IMG/VR virus record: IMGVR_UViG_3300045988_008125
Coordinates: 1-5,923 of that record
Source of the DNA: a virus
Direction: 5' to 3' (one strand)
Length of the DNA: 5,923 nt
How positions within the stretch are numbered: the first letter of the stretch is position 1; each line of letters starts with the position of its first letter. The notes under the pieces are model-generated. The model did no database searches and was not told where the DNA came from. It worked only from the letters and a program-made list of their open reading frames with translations. The position numbers and the translations under genes are program-made. Below are positions 1,515 through 5,923 of the stretch, piece by piece.

Positions 1515-3203
1515 TTATAGTTTTTCCAGACCCGGCACGCTGTACAGCGGCATGCACCTAGTTGTTTTGTTCATTACTCGGATCGCTCCAAAGAACTGCG
1601 GCTCGTTCTGAACAATCAACGTTCGTGCAATTTCGGTTTTGCCTTCGTTCATCCACTCTTGGCTGAGCGTTGGAACTTCGCTGTAGTTGTCTGCATAGTG
1701 CCAGAAGTCCAGTGTCCCTGTCGCATTGCTCCGCATTTTACCGCATACCCGGTTCGGCTTCATGCGATAGTCGGCCCATGCCTCTTGGTAGCCGAATGTT
1801 TCATCGTCCGTTGCTGTACCGGTTACCATGATTTCCTTTTTCTTGACAGGCTGTTCGCCCAGATTTGCAAACTGCGGGAAATAGTAGTCCAGTCTGTCGT
1901 TACGGCTCCAGAATCGTTCCAAACCCTGCTGATAGCTGTGATTATGGCGAACGCACATCACGCCGATAATGAATCCGTGCTCTTCAAAGCTCTTTGTGAA
2001 AGAGCTTTCGTTGATAGGTGTTATAGACATTGCACCAGTCTCGCCGATTGGCGTGTCTGTTTCGGTCTGTTGTCCAGAAGTCTGCACAATTTGGTTAATG
2101 TTGACGTGATAGCGGCCGCCGCCCAGATACTCCGGCACCTGTGCGGTTTTGTCGCTAATGCTTACACCAAAAATTGCTCTTACCTGCTCGCGGTATCGGC
2201 TGCCTCCACGTGCTAGTGCTTCGTAATAGTGCTGAACTGCGAATGCTTGACGTAACTGATTGATTGTTGCGGCTTCGATATTGCTTAGGTCTGTTGCCAT
2301 GTATCTTGCGTTAGGCACAAGGCCATTCTGCTCTGTCGAGCCTATTGCTACGGTTGTACTATTTTCATCGACTTGTTCCAGATATGACAATTGTCCAGTC
2401 ATCCAGATTCGCGATGGGTTCGTTGGCCCGTTAATTCCGTTGTCATCGTACATTCTTACCGGTGCGTTTCCTGTTAGTGCGATTGTGACTTCCGGACCAC
2501 GCTGAGGATACGGCAGACAGCTTGAGAAGTAGTCGTGAAAGCGGCTTACTGGCAAGCAATATCCGCCGTTTTGTGCATTTTTAAGGATTGTTTCTTCTTT
2601 TATTACATCTTCGTTTTCGCCGCCTGATGCGTATTCGACGTTTTCGTCTCCTGTGTTTAGTGTTGCTGGGTTTCCTACGTTTTGGTCTCTAAAAAATTCA
2701 TTCCAGATTTTTACATATGCTCTGATTGGTAGCGCATTGATGCTGTATTCTGATTTCGTTTCTTTTTTGATACTTTTTGCTGGAATACCCATATAGTCGA
2801 GGATTGTTCCTTCGTCTGGATAATCTCTGTCCGGGTTTGGCCATACTGATTTATTTCCGATTATGATTTTCGGTACTTGGTATGTTTTTGCCGGCATCCA
2901 CGGTGTATCGTCTGCTTCTCCCATGAAGTGTTTGAAGTTGTCCCACAGAATTCTGTTCGGACAGAAGAAGTAGTAGAAGTCGATGAATGCATCATCGAAA
3001 ACAGGGTATTTCGGTGTCGTCATTCGGATGATTGCCGCTGTGTCAATGCTGAAAGTATCACCCGGAAGAACTTCGTCTACATAGAATGGAATCAGTTTGC
3101 CCGCATTGAAGGTCGTGAGAATGTTTTGGTCTCTTTTGAAGCGTGTTCGGCTTACGTGCGTTTCTGGCACTTGGTTGAAGTGTCTTTCATTATTCCGGTT
3201 CAT
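1515..3203 (-). CDS. VP1: Major capsid protein VP1 (F-like jelly-roll capsid protein), 562 aa. Preferred start is the ATG at 3201-3203; the track ORF extends in frame to 3269.
   Basis: Protein MNRNNERHFNQVPETHVSRTRFKRDQNILTTFNAGKLIPFYVDEVLPGDTFSIDTAAIIRMTTP... shows the characteristic Microviridae VP1 N-terminal motifs (FNAGKLIPF, EVLPGDTF). Its size, about 560 aa, is typical of gokushovirus-like VP1. An AGGAG SD lies 7 nt upstream of the chosen ATG (AGGAGAAAAACAATG). The 22 codons upstream (MQWNCRRCRKRPQTRQRSRRKT) have no SD and overlap the preceding gene. Confidence 0.93.
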   Translation of the reverse strand: MNRNNERHFNQVPETHVSRTRFKRDQNILTTFNAGKLIPFYVDEVLPGDTFSIDTAAIIRMTTPKYPVFDDAFIDFYYFFCPNRILWDNFKHFMGEADDTPWMPAKTYQVPKIIIGNKSVWPNPDRDYPDEGTILDYMGIPAKSIKKETKSEYSINALPIRAYVKIWNEFFRDQNVGNPATLNTGDENVEYASGGENEDVIKEETILKNAQNGGYCLPVSRFHDYFSSCLPYPQRGPEVTIALTGNAPVRMYDDNGINGPTNPSRIWMTGQLSYLEQVDENSTTVAIGSTEQNGLVPNARYMATDLSNIEAATINQLRQAFAVQHYYEALARGGSRYREQVRAIFGVSISDKTAQVPEYLGGGRYHVNINQIVQTSGQQTETDTPIGETGAMSITPINESSFTKSFEEHGFIIGVMCVRHNHSYQQGLERFWSRNDRLDYYFPQFANLGEQPVKKKEIMVTGTATDDETFGYQEAWADYRMKPNRVCGKMRSNATGTLDFWHYADNYSEVPTLSQEWMNEGKTEIARTLIVQNEPQFFGAIRVMNKTTRCMPLYSVPGLEKL

Positions 3204-3585
3204 TGTTTTTCTCCTGCTTCTTTGTCTCGTTTGCGGCCTTTTCCTGCATCTTCTGCAGTTCCATTGCATTGGCCTGTGCCGTTGCTATCATGCTGTGATA
3301 TTCGTGAATGTTGGTCGGCCACTCGGTGATATCTACGATTTCGTCTGTTTTTGCGCTGTCTACCAGACTTTTGGCAAACTCAGGGTCAAAGCTGGCTTTG
3401 CGGACAATGTTTTTAATGTCGCATTCGTCTGCATAGCTTTCAATTTCGGCTTGAATGTCGATTGGCTCGGTCTCAATCAGTTTGTTTTTACCTTTTTCGT
3501 CTTTGCCCCAGACGTATTGTTTACGTAGTTTTTCGCCCGGATTTGTAAAGAAGGGCTTTCGCCCTTCTTCATATCGCTTATTCAT
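3190..3585 (-). CDS. 131-aa acidic protein, candidate internal scaffolding protein (VP3-like) by position and composition
   Basis: The start ATG at 3583-3585 is preceded by GGGAGGG at -8. It overlaps the stop of the upstream 80-aa ORF (ATGAATAA). Its 3' end overlaps the VP1 start by 14 nt. Sequence: MNKRYEEGRKPFFTNPGEKLRKQYVWGKDEKGKNKLIETEPIDIQAEIESYADECDIKNIVRKASFDPEFAKSLVDSAKTDEIVDITEWPTNIHEYHSMIATAQANAMELQKMQEKAANETKKQEKNNEPE. It is acidic and helical, with an ECDI(K/N)NI-type segment that I recall from gokushovirus VP3 scaffold proteins. This assignment is from memory and not certain. The longer track ORF (from 3738) has no SD and lies inside the upstream gene. Confidence 0.6.
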   Translation of the reverse strand: MNKRYEEGRKPFFTNPGEKLRKQYVWGKDEKGKNKLIETEPIDIQAEIESYADECDIKNIVRKASFDPEFAKSLVDSAKTDEIVDITEWPTNIHEYHSMIATAQANAMELQKMQEKAANETKKQEKNNEPE

Positions 3586-4165: not shown

Positions 4166-4270
4166 TTACTCCTTTTCCTTTAGGATGTGATAGATTTGGT
4201 CGAGCTTTTCCAGCACGGTTTTAATCAGCTGAATTGCCTCTCGCAGGTCCTTGACTTTAATCAACGCCAT
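4166..4270 (-). CDS. Possible 34-aa small ORF (MALIKVKDLREAIQLIKTVLEKLDQIYHILKEKE), amphipathic helix. It fills the gap between the lysin and the 81-aa ORF exactly.
   Basis: It is too short to appear in the supplied ORF track. ATG at 4268-4270 lies 3 nt after the peptidase stop (TAA CCC ATG), with AAGGGGGTG upstream. Its last codons contain the SD (AAGGAAAAGGAG) of the next gene. The stop at 4166-4168 lies 3 nt before the next ATG. Gap-free packing is typical of real microvirus genes, but at 34 aa a chance ORF cannot be excluded. Confidence 0.3.
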   Translation of the reverse strand: MALIKVKDLREAIQLIKTVLEKLDQIYHILKEKE

Positions 4271-4273
4271 GGG

Positions 4274-4657
4274 TTACACCCCCTTTCTGTATTGTTCTTC
4301 TCGCACATCAATGTGTGTGAAGTTTGTGTATCTGATTACGCCGCCTTGCTCCATGATTTTATCTGCGTACTTTGCAACTTCTCTACTGCTGTGCCCTTTT
4401 ACTACGATATCTGCTGCCATCCCTTTGCAGTGATAGCTGTTTGGTGCTCCGTTTACTTTGCTGTTCCAGCTTGGTGTACGGTATCCGCTGTTGATGATGA
4501 CCGGTGCGTTGAAGTGGTTTCGGATTTTTTCCAGTATCTCAATCAGTTCTGTTGCGATTAACAGATATTCGCTTTTGTCTTTGCACTGAAATTCTTTTGC
4601 TTTGAAGTGCTCGCTCAGGTTTCCGAATTCTGCTTTTACATAGCTTATGTGTTTCAT
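4274..4657 (-). CDS. Peptidase M15 family (zinc D-Ala-D-Ala carboxypeptidase-like, Peptidase_M15_3 / YcbK-like) cell-wall hydrolase. Probable phage lysis enzyme. 127 aa.
   Basis: Sequence MKHISYVKAEFGNLSEHFKAKEFQCKDKSEYLLIATELIEILEKIRNHFNAPVIINSGYRTPSWNSKVNGAPNSYHCKGMAADIVVKGHSS...YTNFTHIDVREEQ. It carries the family signature SGYR(T/S)P..N..VGG...S.H..G.A.DI and the H...D...H zinc ligands (SYH, AADI, THID). The ATG at 4655-4657 has an AAAGGAAA SD 7 nt upstream. A consensus promoter lies directly upstream. Confidence 0.85.
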   Translation of the reverse strand: MKHISYVKAEFGNLSEHFKAKEFQCKDKSEYLLIATELIEILEKIRNHFNAPVIINSGYRTPSWNSKVNGAPNSYHCKGMAADIVVKGHSSREVAKYADKIMEQGGVIRYTNFTHIDVREEQYRKGV

Positions 4658-4683
4658 GGCGGTTTCCTTTCTCTTCTATTTTG

Positions 4684-4712
4684 ATTATATCAAAGAGAAC
4701 CCTGGTTGTCAA
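4684..4712 (-). promoter_or_regulatory. Promoter P2 (sigma70-type) driving the peptidase M15 gene: -35 TTGACA (4707-4712), 17-nt spacer, extended -10 TGaTATAAT (4684-4692)
   Basis: The coding strand reads GATTGACAACCAGGGTTCTCTTTGATATAATCAAAATAGAAGAGAAAGGAAACCGCCATG. Both hexamers are perfect consensus, the spacing is the optimal 17 nt, and a TG lies at -15/-14. The predicted TSS is about 4677, giving a 5'UTR of about 20 nt with an SD. Confidence 0.6.
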
Positions 4713-4722
4713 TCGGGGTTCT
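4696..4722 (-). other. Stem-loop (7-bp stem AGAACCC/GGGTTCT, 13-nt loop) immediately after the 60-aa ORF stop. The loop contains the P2 -35 hexamer.
   Basis: The coding strand reads TAA ACAC AGAACCC CGATTGACAACCA GGGTTCT CTTTGATATAAT. The stem is perfect and starts 5 nt after the TAA stop. The downstream stretch is only moderately T-rich. It could attenuate read-through from P1 and/or modulate P2 -35 accessibility. Confidence 0.4.
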
Positions 4723-4726
4723 GTGT

Positions 4727-4909
4727 TTATTTATTTTCTGTGAAGTACAGTGCTTTTTCTTCGACTTTATATAGTGTGTATAGTCCCGGGTTCCTGTTTG
4801 CGTATTCTTTCGCTCTTTGCTTTACGTATTTTGGTTCATCGGTTATTTTGAGTACGGTTGTTAAGCTTTCGTCATCGTTAAATTTTCTGAGTTCATATGT
4901 GTGCTTCAT
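4727..4909 (-). CDS. 60-aa hypothetical protein. Start is the ATG at 4907-4909; the track ORF starts 3 codons earlier at a GTG.
   Basis: Sequence MKHTYELRKFNDDESLTTVLKITDEPKYVKQRAKEYANRNPGLYTLYKVEEKALYFTENK. A GGAAGGTG SD lies 6-7 nt upstream of the ATG. It is the first gene downstream of promoter P1. No recognisable family. Confidence 0.5.
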   Translation of the reverse strand: MKHTYELRKFNDDESLTTVLKITDEPKYVKQRAKEYANRNPGLYTLYKVEEKALYFTENK

Positions 4910-4936
4910 TTTTAGCACCTTCCTTTCTTTGATTAT

Positions 4937-4990
4937 ATTTTATCATATTTTTTGTGTTTTGTCAAGCATTTTTTAGAAGAATTTTTCATT
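4937..4990 (-). promoter_or_regulatory. Promoter P1 (sigma70-type) with an AT-rich UP-element-like tract: -35 TTGACA (4960-4965), 17-nt spacer, extended -10 TGaTAAAAT (4937-4945) with an overlapping TATAAT (4932-4937); UP-like tract at 4966-4990
   Basis: The coding strand reads AATGAAAAATTCTTCTAAAAAATGC TTGACA AAACACAAAAAATATGA TAAAAT ATAATCAAAGAAAGGAAGGTGCTAAAAATG. The -35 is a perfect match. The -10 matches 5/6, with a TG extension and a 17-nt spacer. An A/T-rich block lies immediately upstream of the -35. It sits at the downstream end of the long non-coding region, facing the gene cluster. Confidence 0.6.
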
Positions 4991-4992
4991 AT

Positions 4993-5042
4993 GTGGCCGC
5001 TGTTGCGCGCTACGCGGCGCAACTTCCAGCGAAGCGCGGCCG
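4993..5042. other. GC-rich island with nested inverted repeats that could form a multi-branched hairpin or cruciform
   Basis: GTTGCGC (5001-5007) pairs with GCGCAAC (5016-5022). CGCTG (4998-5002) pairs with CAGCG (5026-5030). GGCCGC (4995-5000) pairs with GCGGCC (5035-5040). The local GC content is far above the genome average. It lies directly upstream of the P1 UP element. Confidence 0.5.
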
Positions 5043-5082
5043 TGGCTTTCCCGTTCGATTCCGGACTGCTTCTATTGGCTTT

Positions 5083-5246
5083 TCAACATTTTCAACATAC
5101 TTTTCAACATTTCAACATTGTTAAACTTTAGCACAATAGAGTGTTTCAACAATTCAACAATTTTTCAACAAATCTTTCAACATTGTTTTTGTTTGTTTTT
5201 TTACGCTCCAACGTTTTAAAATTATACTTTTCAACTTTTCAACATA
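5083..5246. repeat. Iteron array: about 10 directly oriented copies of the 8-mer TTCAACAW (coding strand WTGTTGAA) in three clusters
   Basis: Exact copies start at 5083, 5092, 5104 and 5112 (TTCAACAT); at 5146, 5154 and 5165 (TTCAACAA); at 5177 (TTCAACAT); at 5231 (TTCAACT variant); and at 5239 (TTCAACAT). Spacing within clusters is 8-12 bp, about one helical turn. All copies have the same orientation. Degenerate copies occur at 5208-5214 (CCAACG) and 5263-5270 (TACAACAA). A T-rich bent tract (TTGTTTTTGTTTGTTTTTTT, 5185-5203) separates clusters 2 and 3. Confidence 0.8.
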
Positions 5247-5280
5247 CTCTACTACTATTACTACAACAAGTTATATTATA

Positions 5281-5331
5281 ATACGTGCGCACACGTGCGC
5301 GTGTACTTTTTCGCGCGTATGTGTGTGCGCG
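5281..5331. repeat. Two alternating purine-pyrimidine tracts (26 nt and 20 nt, CG/CA/TG-type) separated by T5. Z-DNA-prone. They contain the palindromes GTGCGCAC and CACGTG and a 10-bp direct repeat ACGTGCGC(A/G).
   Basis: 5281-5306 ATACGTGCGCACACGTGCGCGTGTAC alternates Pu/Py perfectly for 26 nt. 5312-5331 CGCGCGTATGTGTGTGCGCG alternates perfectly for 20 nt. Segment 5287-5294 (GCGCACAC) is complementary to 5323-5330 (GTGTGCGC). The tracts are GC-rich within AT-rich flanks. Confidence 0.7.
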
Positions 5332-5346
5332 ATTAGAATGATTAGT

Positions 5347-5408
5347 TAAATAGTAATAATTATCACTTTTCACGTGATAAATAGTAATAATTATCACTTT
5401 TCACGTGA
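5347..5408. repeat. Perfect 31-bp x2 tandem direct repeat (TAAATAGTAATAATTATCACTTTTCACGTGA). Each unit carries a CACGTG palindrome. The unit junction creates the inverted repeat GTGATAA-N10-TTATCAC.
   Basis: 5347-5377 is identical to 5378-5408. CACGTG occurs at 5371-5376 and 5402-5407. A third CACGTG lies at 5292-5297. GTGATAA (5374-5380) is the reverse complement of TTATCAC (5391-5397). The palindrome ATAATTAT lies inside each unit. Confidence 0.9.
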
Positions 5409-5422
5409 GATTAAACAATAAT

Positions 5423-5456
5423 AGCCCAGTACCTTACTTGATAGGTACTGGGCTAG
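5423..5456 (-). terminator. Intrinsic terminator-like hairpin 10 nt downstream of the Rep stop. It has a perfect 13-bp stem (5423-5435 / 5444-5456) and an 8-nt loop. On the coding strand it is followed by TTATTGTTTAATC.
   Basis: The coding strand reads TAA TTGGTGTCACC TAGCCCAGTACCT ATCAAGTA AGGTACTGGGCTA TTATTGTTTAATC. All 13 stem pairs are Watson-Crick. The downstream tract has 8 Ts in 13 nt. Its position at the end of the last gene of the operon fits an operon terminator. Confidence 0.5.
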
Positions 5457-5466
5457 GTGACACCAA

Positions 5467-5923
5467 TTATAAAATACCACGCTTTTTCGTTTGTTTTTTG
5501 ATGACACGTTCTTTTGTCTCTAGGACTGTCTTATAGTCTTGGTCCTCTAACTGTAGTCTCTTTTGTTCGATTGCGTTTTTTTGCCTGTTTTGCTTGATTC
5601 TCCATAGTCTTTCCGGGTTTTCTGCTTCCATCTGCTTTTCGTAGTATCTTGGAATCTGCGCTTGTTTTCCGTTTGTGCATTGAATGTATCCTTGCCGCCA
5701 GATTTCTGTTTTGTGCTCTTGATAGTAATGGTCTCCAAGACCCGGCTTTAGGCTCATGCAAGCAAAAGGCTTTGTTTGTCCTAATTCGTAGTACGCATTG
5801 GCTTTCTTTCCGTCTATCTCGTACATTTTTTTTGTAACATAGCCTGCAACATATCTATATGTTTCCGGAACGGCTTGTGCGATTTGTATTTGACCCATGC
5901 CCCACAATTTTTTCAGCCATTCG
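5467..5923 (-). CDS. VP4: Replication initiation protein VP4 (Rep), 3'/C-terminal portion. It continues from 662..1 across the circular junction. Positions 5825-5923 duplicate 1-99.
   Basis: It is in frame with the N-terminal part (5907 corresponds to position 83 of the unit, and 662-83 is divisible by 3). It contains the catalytic-Tyr motif [14 protein letters not shown], then a K/Q/E-rich C-terminal tail ending ...KKQTKKRGIL, with a TAA stop at 5467-5469. Confidence 0.9.
   Translation of the reverse strand, partial: EWLKKLWGMGQIQIAQAVPETYRYVAGYVTKKMYEIDGKKANAYYELGQTKPFACMSLKPGLGDHYYQEHKTEIWRQGYIQCTNGKQAQIPRYYEKQMEAENPERLWRIKQNRQKNAIEQKRLQLEDQDYKTVLETKERVIKKQTKKRGIL
5825..5923. repeat. 99-bp terminal redundancy: an exact copy of positions 1-99. 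This is an assembly overlap of a circular 5,824-bp genome, not a biological terminal repeat.
   Basis: 5825-5923 (ATTTTTTTTGTAACATAGCC...TTTTCAGCCATTCG) is identical base for base to 1-99. Circularising gives an uninterrupted 339-codon Rep ORF across the junction. Confidence 0.95.

Follow-up and report, generated by a model that had tools for sequence, protein, structure and literature searches.

What reads an array of short direct repeats in a phage genome that has little other non-coding DNA is the question raised by IMG/VR virus record IMGVR_UViG_3300045988_008125. The window, meaning the whole stretch of 5,923 nucleotides analysed here, holds one complete circular genome of gokushovirus type, 5824 bp long, whose positions 1-99 recur at 5825-5923. 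The minus strand carries every gene, and the sole sizeable non-coding region, at 4919-5466, holds the repeats; its 548 bp agree with the approximately 545 bp given in an earlier note on this DNA. That note read the repeats, written as TTCAACAW, as candidate binding sites for the phage Rep or for a small phage protein, or as an element organising an origin. The comparisons described below suggest that they are DnaA boxes of the variant form TTTTCAACA, addressed to the chromosomal initiator of the host, and that with the parts downstream they form a module for host-DnaA-driven opening of the replicative form. A probability of roughly 70% is attached to this reading, which rests on comparison of sequences.

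Nine exact copies of TTCAACAW, all on the plus strand, start at 5082, 5091, 5103, 5111, 5145, 5153, 5164, 5176 and 5238, spanning 5082-5245, and a tenth copy with one mismatch, TTCAACTT, is present at 5230. Dinucleotide-preserving shuffles of the window contained a mean of 0.71 copies and a maximum of three, and nine were reached in 0 of 200. The earlier count of about ten directly oriented copies is borne out, as is their grouping as 4+4+2 at a spacing of 8-12 bp (start-to-start 9, 12, 8 / 8, 11, 12 / 8 bp). The limits then given for the array, 5083-5246, hold at neither end: the first copy starts at 5082, the repeats read as 9-mers are TTTTCAACA and begin at 5080, and the functional unit reaches at least 5283, taking in trinucleotide repeats and an AT-rich stretch. 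The statement that all copies lie on one helical face is only approximately true, since there are two phases about 2 bp apart. As a single strand the array has no structure (z = +0.7), which fits an array bound by protein as duplex. The only open reading frames (ORFs) overlapping it are of 33 and 46 amino acids, and coding potential was rejected because conservation runs motif by motif with variable spacers and is not coding-like. Comparison with known RNA families gave sub-threshold chance matches only.

The order of parts beyond the repeats is that of the basal unwinding system (BUS) of Bacillus subtilis, which comprises DnaA-boxes 6 and 7, the DnaA-trios and the AT-rich element of incC (Richardson 2016/2019; Pelliciari 2021, PMC8287927; PMC6669920). 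This element has been defined experimentally as, in order, 5'-TTATCCACA, AATCCACA, GGCC, CTA CTA TTA CTT CTA CTA and TTTTTTATA (PMC8287927). Aligned to it, the window reads TTTTCAACT, TTTTCAACA, TACT, CTA CTA CTA TTA CTA, CAA CAA G and TTATATTATAATA. The two share the order of the elements, the strand relation of boxes and trios, proximal boxes offset by 8 bp, a spacer of 4 nt, at least three GAT-type trios, a downstream AT-rich stretch of least stability and extra boxes upstream in the same orientation. They differ in that the phage module lies in a 5.8-kb single-stranded DNA (ssDNA) phage with its own HUH Rep and not between dnaA and dnaN, and in that the phage has the box variant TTTTCAACA, an invariant CAACAAG after the trios and a block that occurs in either orientation. 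The module thus appears to copy the BUS with its distal clusters, two overlapping proximal boxes, 4-nt spacer, trios and AT-rich unwinding element.

Published searches for such modules look for a box with at most two mismatches to TTATCCACA, placed 0-16 bp from at least three trios with a central A (PMC8287927). The proximal box of the window, TTTTCAACA, has two mismatches and ends 4 bp before the first trio, and the corresponding box of most relatives, TTTTCCACA, has one. A second box, tandem, in the same orientation and with no more than four mismatches, is supplied by TTTTCAACT, at the offset seen between TTATCCACA and AATCCACA in B. subtilis. The trios, of the 3'-GAT-5' type, come after the 3' ends of the boxes and lie on the complement of the strand that reads 5'-TTATCCACA-3'; the plus strand opposite them shows the 5'-TnnT periodicity recognised by DnaD. 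Positions 5268-5283 form the least stable 16-mer within 4900-5485, hence of the whole non-coding region, and overlap positions that are A/T-only in 90 relatives. Moreover, the 16-mer CTACTACTATTACTAC at 5249-5264 recurs identically in the trio stretch CACCTACTACTATTACTACTATGA of Clostridioides difficile oriC2. A chromosomal oriC typically flanks dnaA, and this element sits in a 5824-bp microvirus genome; it is, to judge by its parts, an element that would work like the core of oriC, and not a chromosomal origin.

Pattern scans of IMG/VR, together with GenBank matches, gave about 130 microvirus genomes with Rep proteins 35-95% identical to that of the window. The comparison across related Microviridae suggested in the earlier note finds the same architecture in these gokushoviruses. 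On one strand it runs from cluster 1 (3-4 boxes) through a variable spacer to cluster 2 (four boxes, with the pattern TTCAACAwTTCAACAagttTTCAACAaatctTTCAACA), about 45 nt of T/A-rich spacer, a pair of overlapping boxes, 4 nt, the CTA repeats, CAACAAGTTA and an A/T run. Each genome has ten to thirteen boxes in the same orientation. Across 69 relatives the box profile is T-T-T-T-C-(A 78% / C 22%)-A-C-A, with 66 occurrences of TTTTCCACA and 8 of TTATCCACA, and 300 boxes forward vs 14 reverse. TTTTCCACA is found at positions homologous to cluster 1, the third box of cluster 2 is the perfect consensus DnaA box TTATCCACA in some relatives, and the proximal pair is TTTTCAAC-TTTTCCACA in most. In the window itself, the last box of cluster 1, ATTTCAACA, has an 8-bp offset and a 1-nt overlap with the box before it.

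Geometry is kept along with the boxes. Of 70 genomes, 58 have at the promoter-distal end the exact layout of two boxes at 8-bp offset, a 4-nt spacer and five triplets starting CTA CTA CTA, and all 70 have CTA CTA CTA itself. The spacer, whose position corresponds to the GC cluster of bacterial origins, is GCCC (often), GTGC or CTCC in many relatives; one of them (L003) reads TTTTCAAC, TTTTCCACA, GCCC and five CTA triplets. In 90 relatives selected independently of the downstream sequence, every position of CTACAACAAGTTA is at least 97% conserved; beyond it come 9-10 positions that are always A or T, then GC-rich DNA. A conserved, functional-looking element in the replication-control region agrees with the earlier suggestion of an origin-organising cis element.

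The pattern TTTTCCACA-N4-CTACTACTAC, present in many of the phages, has at least 120 matches in bacterial genomes, compared with about 4 expected by chance. At least 68 of the 120 bacterial matches listed are immediately preceded, on the same strand, by signature motifs of dnaA, which makes the pattern a marker of the dnaA-dnaN origin in different phyla. None of the 120 loci listed encodes microvirus proteins. Three dnaA-dnaN spacers, from gut and rumen genomes, are full of TTCAACA: that of Ruminococcus sp. L158 (18 copies, 4984-5499), of L182, a Eubacteriales metagenome-assembled genome (MAG) from Hadza gut (10 copies, 4200-4720, minus strand), and of L217, a Ruminococcaceae MAG (5 copies, 3093-3385). 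The DnaA and DnaN flanks are confirmed by Pfam for L158 and L217, and for L182 DnaA signature motifs point to a dnaA upstream. In all three spacers TTTTCAACA, not TTATCCACA, is the predominant DnaA-box variant, and each array ends in TTTCAACTTTTCCACA-N4-CTACTACTAC.

The phage module shares with these Ruminococcus-type origins the TTCAACA arrays, the 8-12 bp spacing, TTTCAACTTTTCCACA-N4-CTACTACTAC and the AT-rich DNA that follows. It differs from them in that the bacterial spacers are longer and carry boxes on both strands, and nucleotide homology does not continue past the motifs (best blastn match, 35 nt at 89%). Recent capture from a host origin was rejected, as no extended homology was found to any of the 120 bacterial loci listed, and the module looks like mimicry or an old capture and not a recent transfer. 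The DnaA domain IV of these TTCAACA-using Clostridia shares a distinctive YVVREIT...RDHSTIVY pattern; altered contact residues in this domain were considered, and no clean change of specificity could be argued.

Direct repeats in a non-coding region beside rep, where the replicon has an HUH Rep of its own (PF23343), might be taken for iterons read by that Rep and organising a rolling-circle origin, as in pMV158, circoviruses and geminiviruses. This was the binding partner put forward in the earlier note, and the comparison does not support it. The same box is kept in relatives with Rep only 35-46% identical, with no co-variation as Rep falls to 35% identity; where the repeats vary, canonical DnaA boxes take their place; identical repeats fill the dnaA-dnaN spacers of Ruminococcus-type bacteria, where no phage Rep exists; and in some genomes the array is turned round with respect to rep and hairpin, with no fixed position or orientation at the stem-loop. 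The origins of pMV158 (bind/nic; PMC1851628), circoviruses and geminiviruses do likewise have direct repeats near a conserved stem-loop beside rep, but their iterons are read by their own Rep and co-vary, whereas the phage boxes match sites of a host initiator. The likeness drawn earlier to circovirus and geminivirus iterons beside a nick-site hairpin fits better the covarying hairpin at 5422-5455, whose flanking GTGTCA repeats are the closer analogue of such iterons and the better Rep site. Iterons for Rep are accordingly considered very improbable.

Variation within the box also bears on Spo0A, which binds oriC and phi29 DNA. If the repeats were Spo0A boxes (TGTCGAA, that is TTCGACA on the plus strand), the phage would sense host sporulation as phi29 does; TTCAACA is one mismatch from TTCGACA, which relative L001 carries. 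Of 718 boxes, 559 have A at position 6, 157 have C and 1 has G, the base that the core TGNCGAA needs there. The variation therefore runs toward the DnaA consensus and never toward that of Spo0A, and Spo0A is the least probable of the readers considered. Direct repeats of the OmpR/PhoP/WalR type, IHF sites and LexA sites were also rejected, as none fits the 8/9/11/12-bp spacing or the spectrum of variants.

A further possibility, also raised in the earlier note, is that the repeats are operators for a small DNA-binding phage protein that controls the promoter at 4965..4937. The array does lie upstream of this promoter, at 117-280 bp (120-280 bp in the earlier estimate), the small genes orf34, orf39 and VP5 are each found in 116-126 of the approximately 130 genomes, and VP5 belongs to a PHROG with a DNA-binding annotation. 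On the other side, the ORF that comes first after the promoter, whose product had been suggested as a possible binder, is found in only 19 of the approximately 130 block-carrying genomes, the same repeats occur in bacterial chromosomal origins, and the trios and AT-rich element would be left unexplained. Very little credence is given to operators of this kind.

Positions 5080-5303, which take in the block of boxes, trios and AT-rich DNA, are 80-85% identical in GenBank gut gokushoviruses of pig, human and monkey, several of which have no other detectable nucleotide similarity to the window. Identity of the block to that of the window stays at about 63-74% however far Rep has diverged. The spacer families are distributed as a mosaic across Rep groups, which suggests that the module has been exchanged between lineages. 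Six genomes (L002, L007, L050, L078, L103 and L310) carry the block, of about 215-230 bp, as a clean inversion with its flanks unchanged; L310 (MG945447) is the closest GenBank relative. In two more (L029 and L091, with Rep 35-37% identical) it has been relocated between a VP2-like gene and the hairpin and start of Rep. By these comparisons it behaves as a cassette. Its AT-rich end points to the Rep hairpin in about 120 of 130 genomes. The distance from block to hairpin ranges from about 20 nt (in the L003 group) to about 400 nt.

Boxes that bind DnaA need not open DNA. They could serve regulation, either as a sponge on the multicopy replicative form that blocks host initiation, comparable with the inc regions of B. 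subtilis or datA of Escherichia coli, or as a switch through which DnaA sets promoter or Rep expression and senses the replication status of the host. The number of boxes in each genome and a promoter 117 bp away are in keeping with both versions, and the block's independence of orientation is compatible with titration. When DnaA-box regions from B. subtilis oriC are placed on a plasmid, they show incompatibility with the chromosome, which also counts for a regulatory role. Neither version would need the exact geometry of proximal box, spacer, trios and AT-rich stretch that is kept in nearly all of the approximately 130 genomes, and, likewise against a regulatory role, inversion of the block changes which end adjoins the promoter. 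Regulation as the sole role is regarded as unlikely; it is possible alongside an origin, with which it is compatible and not exclusive. An origin-like function is favoured over pure titration or control of transcription because the full geometry is conserved, because the block acts as a cassette, and because the module recurs in much larger viral contigs.

In a set of 2.9 million viral contigs the TTTTCCACA signature has 93 matches, and about 89 of these are in contigs of microvirus size. The version with TTTTCAACA is also present in three viral contigs of about 140 kb (L333, L338 and L340) and one of 43 kb (L337). In these large gut viral contigs the module reads TTTTCAACTTTTCAACAcgacCTACTACTACTAtatatattt, with TTCAACA/TGTTGAA boxes upstream, and no DnaA motif was found in the 6-14 kb examined of each. 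Origin function is the simplest reading of the module there, and its presence in the ~140-kb contigs suggests a strategy that extends beyond microviruses. The canonical TTATCCACA-N4-CTACTACTAC occurs in 12 large viral contigs (L318-L329). The large contigs of either kind could be phages, phage-plasmids or mis-binned DNA.

DnaA boxes adjoin iterons and an AT-rich region in theta-plasmid origins, which need a plasmid initiator of the RepA/TrfA type with iterons of its own. The phage module resembles the origins of pSC101, RK2, F and P1 in that host DnaA would be recruited to the origin of a mobile element with an AT-rich opening site. It differs from them in that the window encodes no RepA/TrfA-type initiator and the array consists wholly of DnaA boxes plus trios. 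Derivation from a mobile element or plasmid origin was rejected, as a plasmid collection yielded only trivial Acinetobacter matches.

If the boxes and trios act as they do in bacteria, DnaA-ATP would dock at the boxes on the double-stranded replicative form and oligomerise from the proximal boxes along the minus-strand trios (3'-GAT-5'), and this would melt 5268-5283. The opened region could then serve as the entry for loading of the host helicase (DnaD/DnaB/DnaI-DnaC in Firmicutes), leading to DnaA-dependent initiation on the replicative form. In most genomes the opening would adjoin the Rep hairpin, and DnaA-driven opening may also help Rep, although the inverted-block genomes indicate that such coupling is not obligatory. 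Binding and unwinding of the module by DnaA are predicted from its parts; the use made of the opening is the least certain step.

Several observations weigh against this reading. The variant TTTTCAACA is two positions off TTATCCACA and one off TTWTNCACA, the spacer TACT of the window has the bacterial length and is not GC-rich, and the fourth triplet of the relatives is often the non-canonical CGG or CGA. The CAACAAG that follows the trios resembles only one Ruminococcus origin (L131), is no general bacterial feature, and may be read by something else. Inversion and relocation of the block imply that a strand-specific coupling to Rep or to packaging is not obligatory. The module is absent from the classical gokushoviruses Chp2, phiMH2K and SpV4, DnaA is not needed in rolling-circle replication of the phiX174 paradigm, and no microvirus relatives, which would allow a direct assignment of the host, were found in bacterial genome assemblies.

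With respect to the host, the phage repeat is the box variant that the origins of certain bacteria themselves use, which points to Ruminococcus-like gut Clostridia. Gram-positive-type promoters, GGAGG ribosome-binding sites and an M15 endolysin are consistent with a host of this kind.

The region next to Rep holds a second element, a hairpin with a stability of z = -5.6. Read on the gene-sense strand, the loop is ATCAAGTA, with the invariant core CAAG, and the flank is GGTGTCAC, which contains GTGTCA with an invariant T-TCA; GTGTCA is often repeated 2-3 times around the hairpin. Compensatory changes occur at 8 of 13 stem pairs among relatives that include the Chlamydia phage Chp2. The hairpin is the better candidate than the TTCAACA array for the site that Rep binds and nicks; it also has the form of a terminator, and its link to the box array is conjectural. 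Read on the antisense strand, the loop is TTACTTGATA and contains CTTGATA (CTTG/ATA), the nick core of phiX174/pC194-type origins. The ACTTG(AT) reading of the loop is gene-sense in Chp2 (L307, 2905-2950) and SpV4 (L309, about 512-545), and antisense in the window (5424-5455) and in all of the approximately 130 relatives, so that the putative origin hairpin of the window's clade lies the other way round with respect to the genes. Chp2 carries two exact consensus-type DnaA boxes (TTTTGCACA) on the minus strand at 2820-2840, 12 nt apart, without trios and about 50 nt from its origin-like hairpin. From these it may be supposed that DnaA boxes beside the hairpin are older than the full module.

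Four clusters of near-identical relatives (around L003, L006, L012 and L034; 34 genomes) supplied singleton substitutions, which were scored on the gene-sense strand. Per kb of source base, G>A stood at 84 and C>T at 59 (C>T / G>A ratio 0.70), and C>A at 41.5 vs 8.9 for G>T (ratio 4.7). The sign of both asymmetries is alike in all four clusters, and five Chlamydia phages (L307, L314-L317) are opposite for transitions, with C>T at 56/kb vs G>A at 23/kb. Taken with the inverted hairpin, this tentatively suggests that the strand exposed as ssDNA or packaged in the clade of the window is the antisense one; selection for A-rich codons could contribute to the asymmetry.

A tentative extension, judged less likely than not, is that this large clade of gut gokushoviruses has two origins, one DnaA-dependent and minichromosome-like on the replicative form, the other the Rep hairpin, which would produce progeny strands by rolling circle. 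Were this so, the replicative form would amplify or persist as a plasmid-like carrier, in step with the host cell cycle and without an integrase, and a corollary, from the inverted hairpin and the mutational asymmetry, would be a packaged strand complementary to the mRNA-sense strand.

Textbooks present microviruses as replicating by a Rep-driven rolling circle, independently of host DnaA. Full-text searches of the literature found no paper on DnaA boxes, DnaA-trios or oriC-like modules in microviruses, in line with the earlier suggestion of a feature undescribed for this virus family; the type of element is known, and its microvirus context would be new. If the proposed role is correct, abundant uncultured phages of the human and animal gut plug into the control of host initiation, which is a possible explanation for the long-term persistence of integrase-less gut gokushoviruses. 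It would also open a new route to host prediction, leading from the box variant TTTTCAACA to Ruminococcus-like Clostridia. The module is present in more than 100 gut gokushovirus genomes, and the published DnaA strand-separation assay is applicable to it on a 56-bp scaffold.

Table 1. Coordinates of the putative opening module and of other features of the window.
Feature	Position	Strand	Remarks
Putative DnaA-box cluster 1	5080..5117	+	TTTTCAACA at 5080, 5089 and 5101; ATTTCAACA at 5109
Spacer 1	5118..5142		three sequence families, variable among relatives
Putative DnaA-box cluster 2	5143..5182	+	GTTTCAACA 5143; AATTCAACA 5151; TTTTCAACA 5162; CTTTCAACA 5174
T/A-rich spacer 2	5183..5227		contains ACG..AACGTT
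Putative proximal tandem DnaA boxes	5228..5244	+	TTTTCAACT 5228-5236; TTTTCAACA 5236-5244; 8-bp offset
4-nt spacer	5245..5248		TACT in the window
Putative DnaA-trios	5249..5263	minus	plus strand CTA CTA CTA TTA CTA; minus strand 3'-GAT GAT GAT AAT GAT-5'
CAA CAA G	5264..5270	+	within the 13-mer CTACAACAAGTTA (5261-5273)
A/T-only stretch, candidate DNA unwinding element	5271..5283		
13-bp hairpin	5422-5455 (stem 5422-5434 / 5443-5455), within 5413..5466	minus	directly after the Rep stop
Consensus sigma-70-like promoter, TTGACA-17-TAAAAT	4965..4937	minus	nearest to the array, 117-280 bp off
Rep, HUH protein, family PF23343	662->1, then 5824->5467	minus	
VP2 pilot protein	659-1474	minus	
VP1 capsid, Phage_F	1515-3203	minus	

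Further minus-strand genes of the window are those for VP3, VP5, an M15 peptidase/endolysin (4274-4657) and small ORFs. Strong GGAGG-type ribosome-binding sites are present in the window, and two near-perfect extended -10 sigma-70 promoters lie on the minus strand at 4684-4712 and 4937-4965, with 12/12 and 11/12 matches. In the sense of the genes, the non-coding region runs from the Rep stop through the hairpin (5455-5422), a 31-bp tandem repeat (5408-5347), a GC tract (5331-5284), the box/trio element (5283-5080) and a GC-rich stretch (5079-4990) to the promoter (4965-4937).

The repeat at 5347-5408 is a perfect tandem duplication (TAAATAGTAATAATTATCACTTTTCACGTGA twice) with the palindrome TCACGTGA inside it, and a related motif, TCACGTGATAACG, occurs inside the AT-rich spacer of the block in L042, L062, L094 and L100. 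The tract at 5284-5331, between the AT-rich element and the hairpin, is alternating purine-pyrimidine GC (CGTGCGCACACGTGCGCGTG...GTGTGTGCGCG), prone to form Z-DNA or a hairpin; most relatives keep the type of sequence, not the sequence itself, and the tract remains on the Rep side upon inversion of the block. The GC-rich stretch at 4990-5079, between the boxes and the promoter, contains a nested stem, GGCCGC...GCGGCC around GTTGCGC..GCGCAAC, and the tRNA T-arm-like GTTCGATTCC. A tRNA or tRNA-like attachment site at 4990-5080 was rejected, as ARAGORN gave no match, and so was a significantly stable hairpin (z = -0.6, no better than shuffles in the window). The stretch has the same orientation relative to the genes in either orientation of the block (L001 vs L002), which makes it a candidate origin for the complementary strand.

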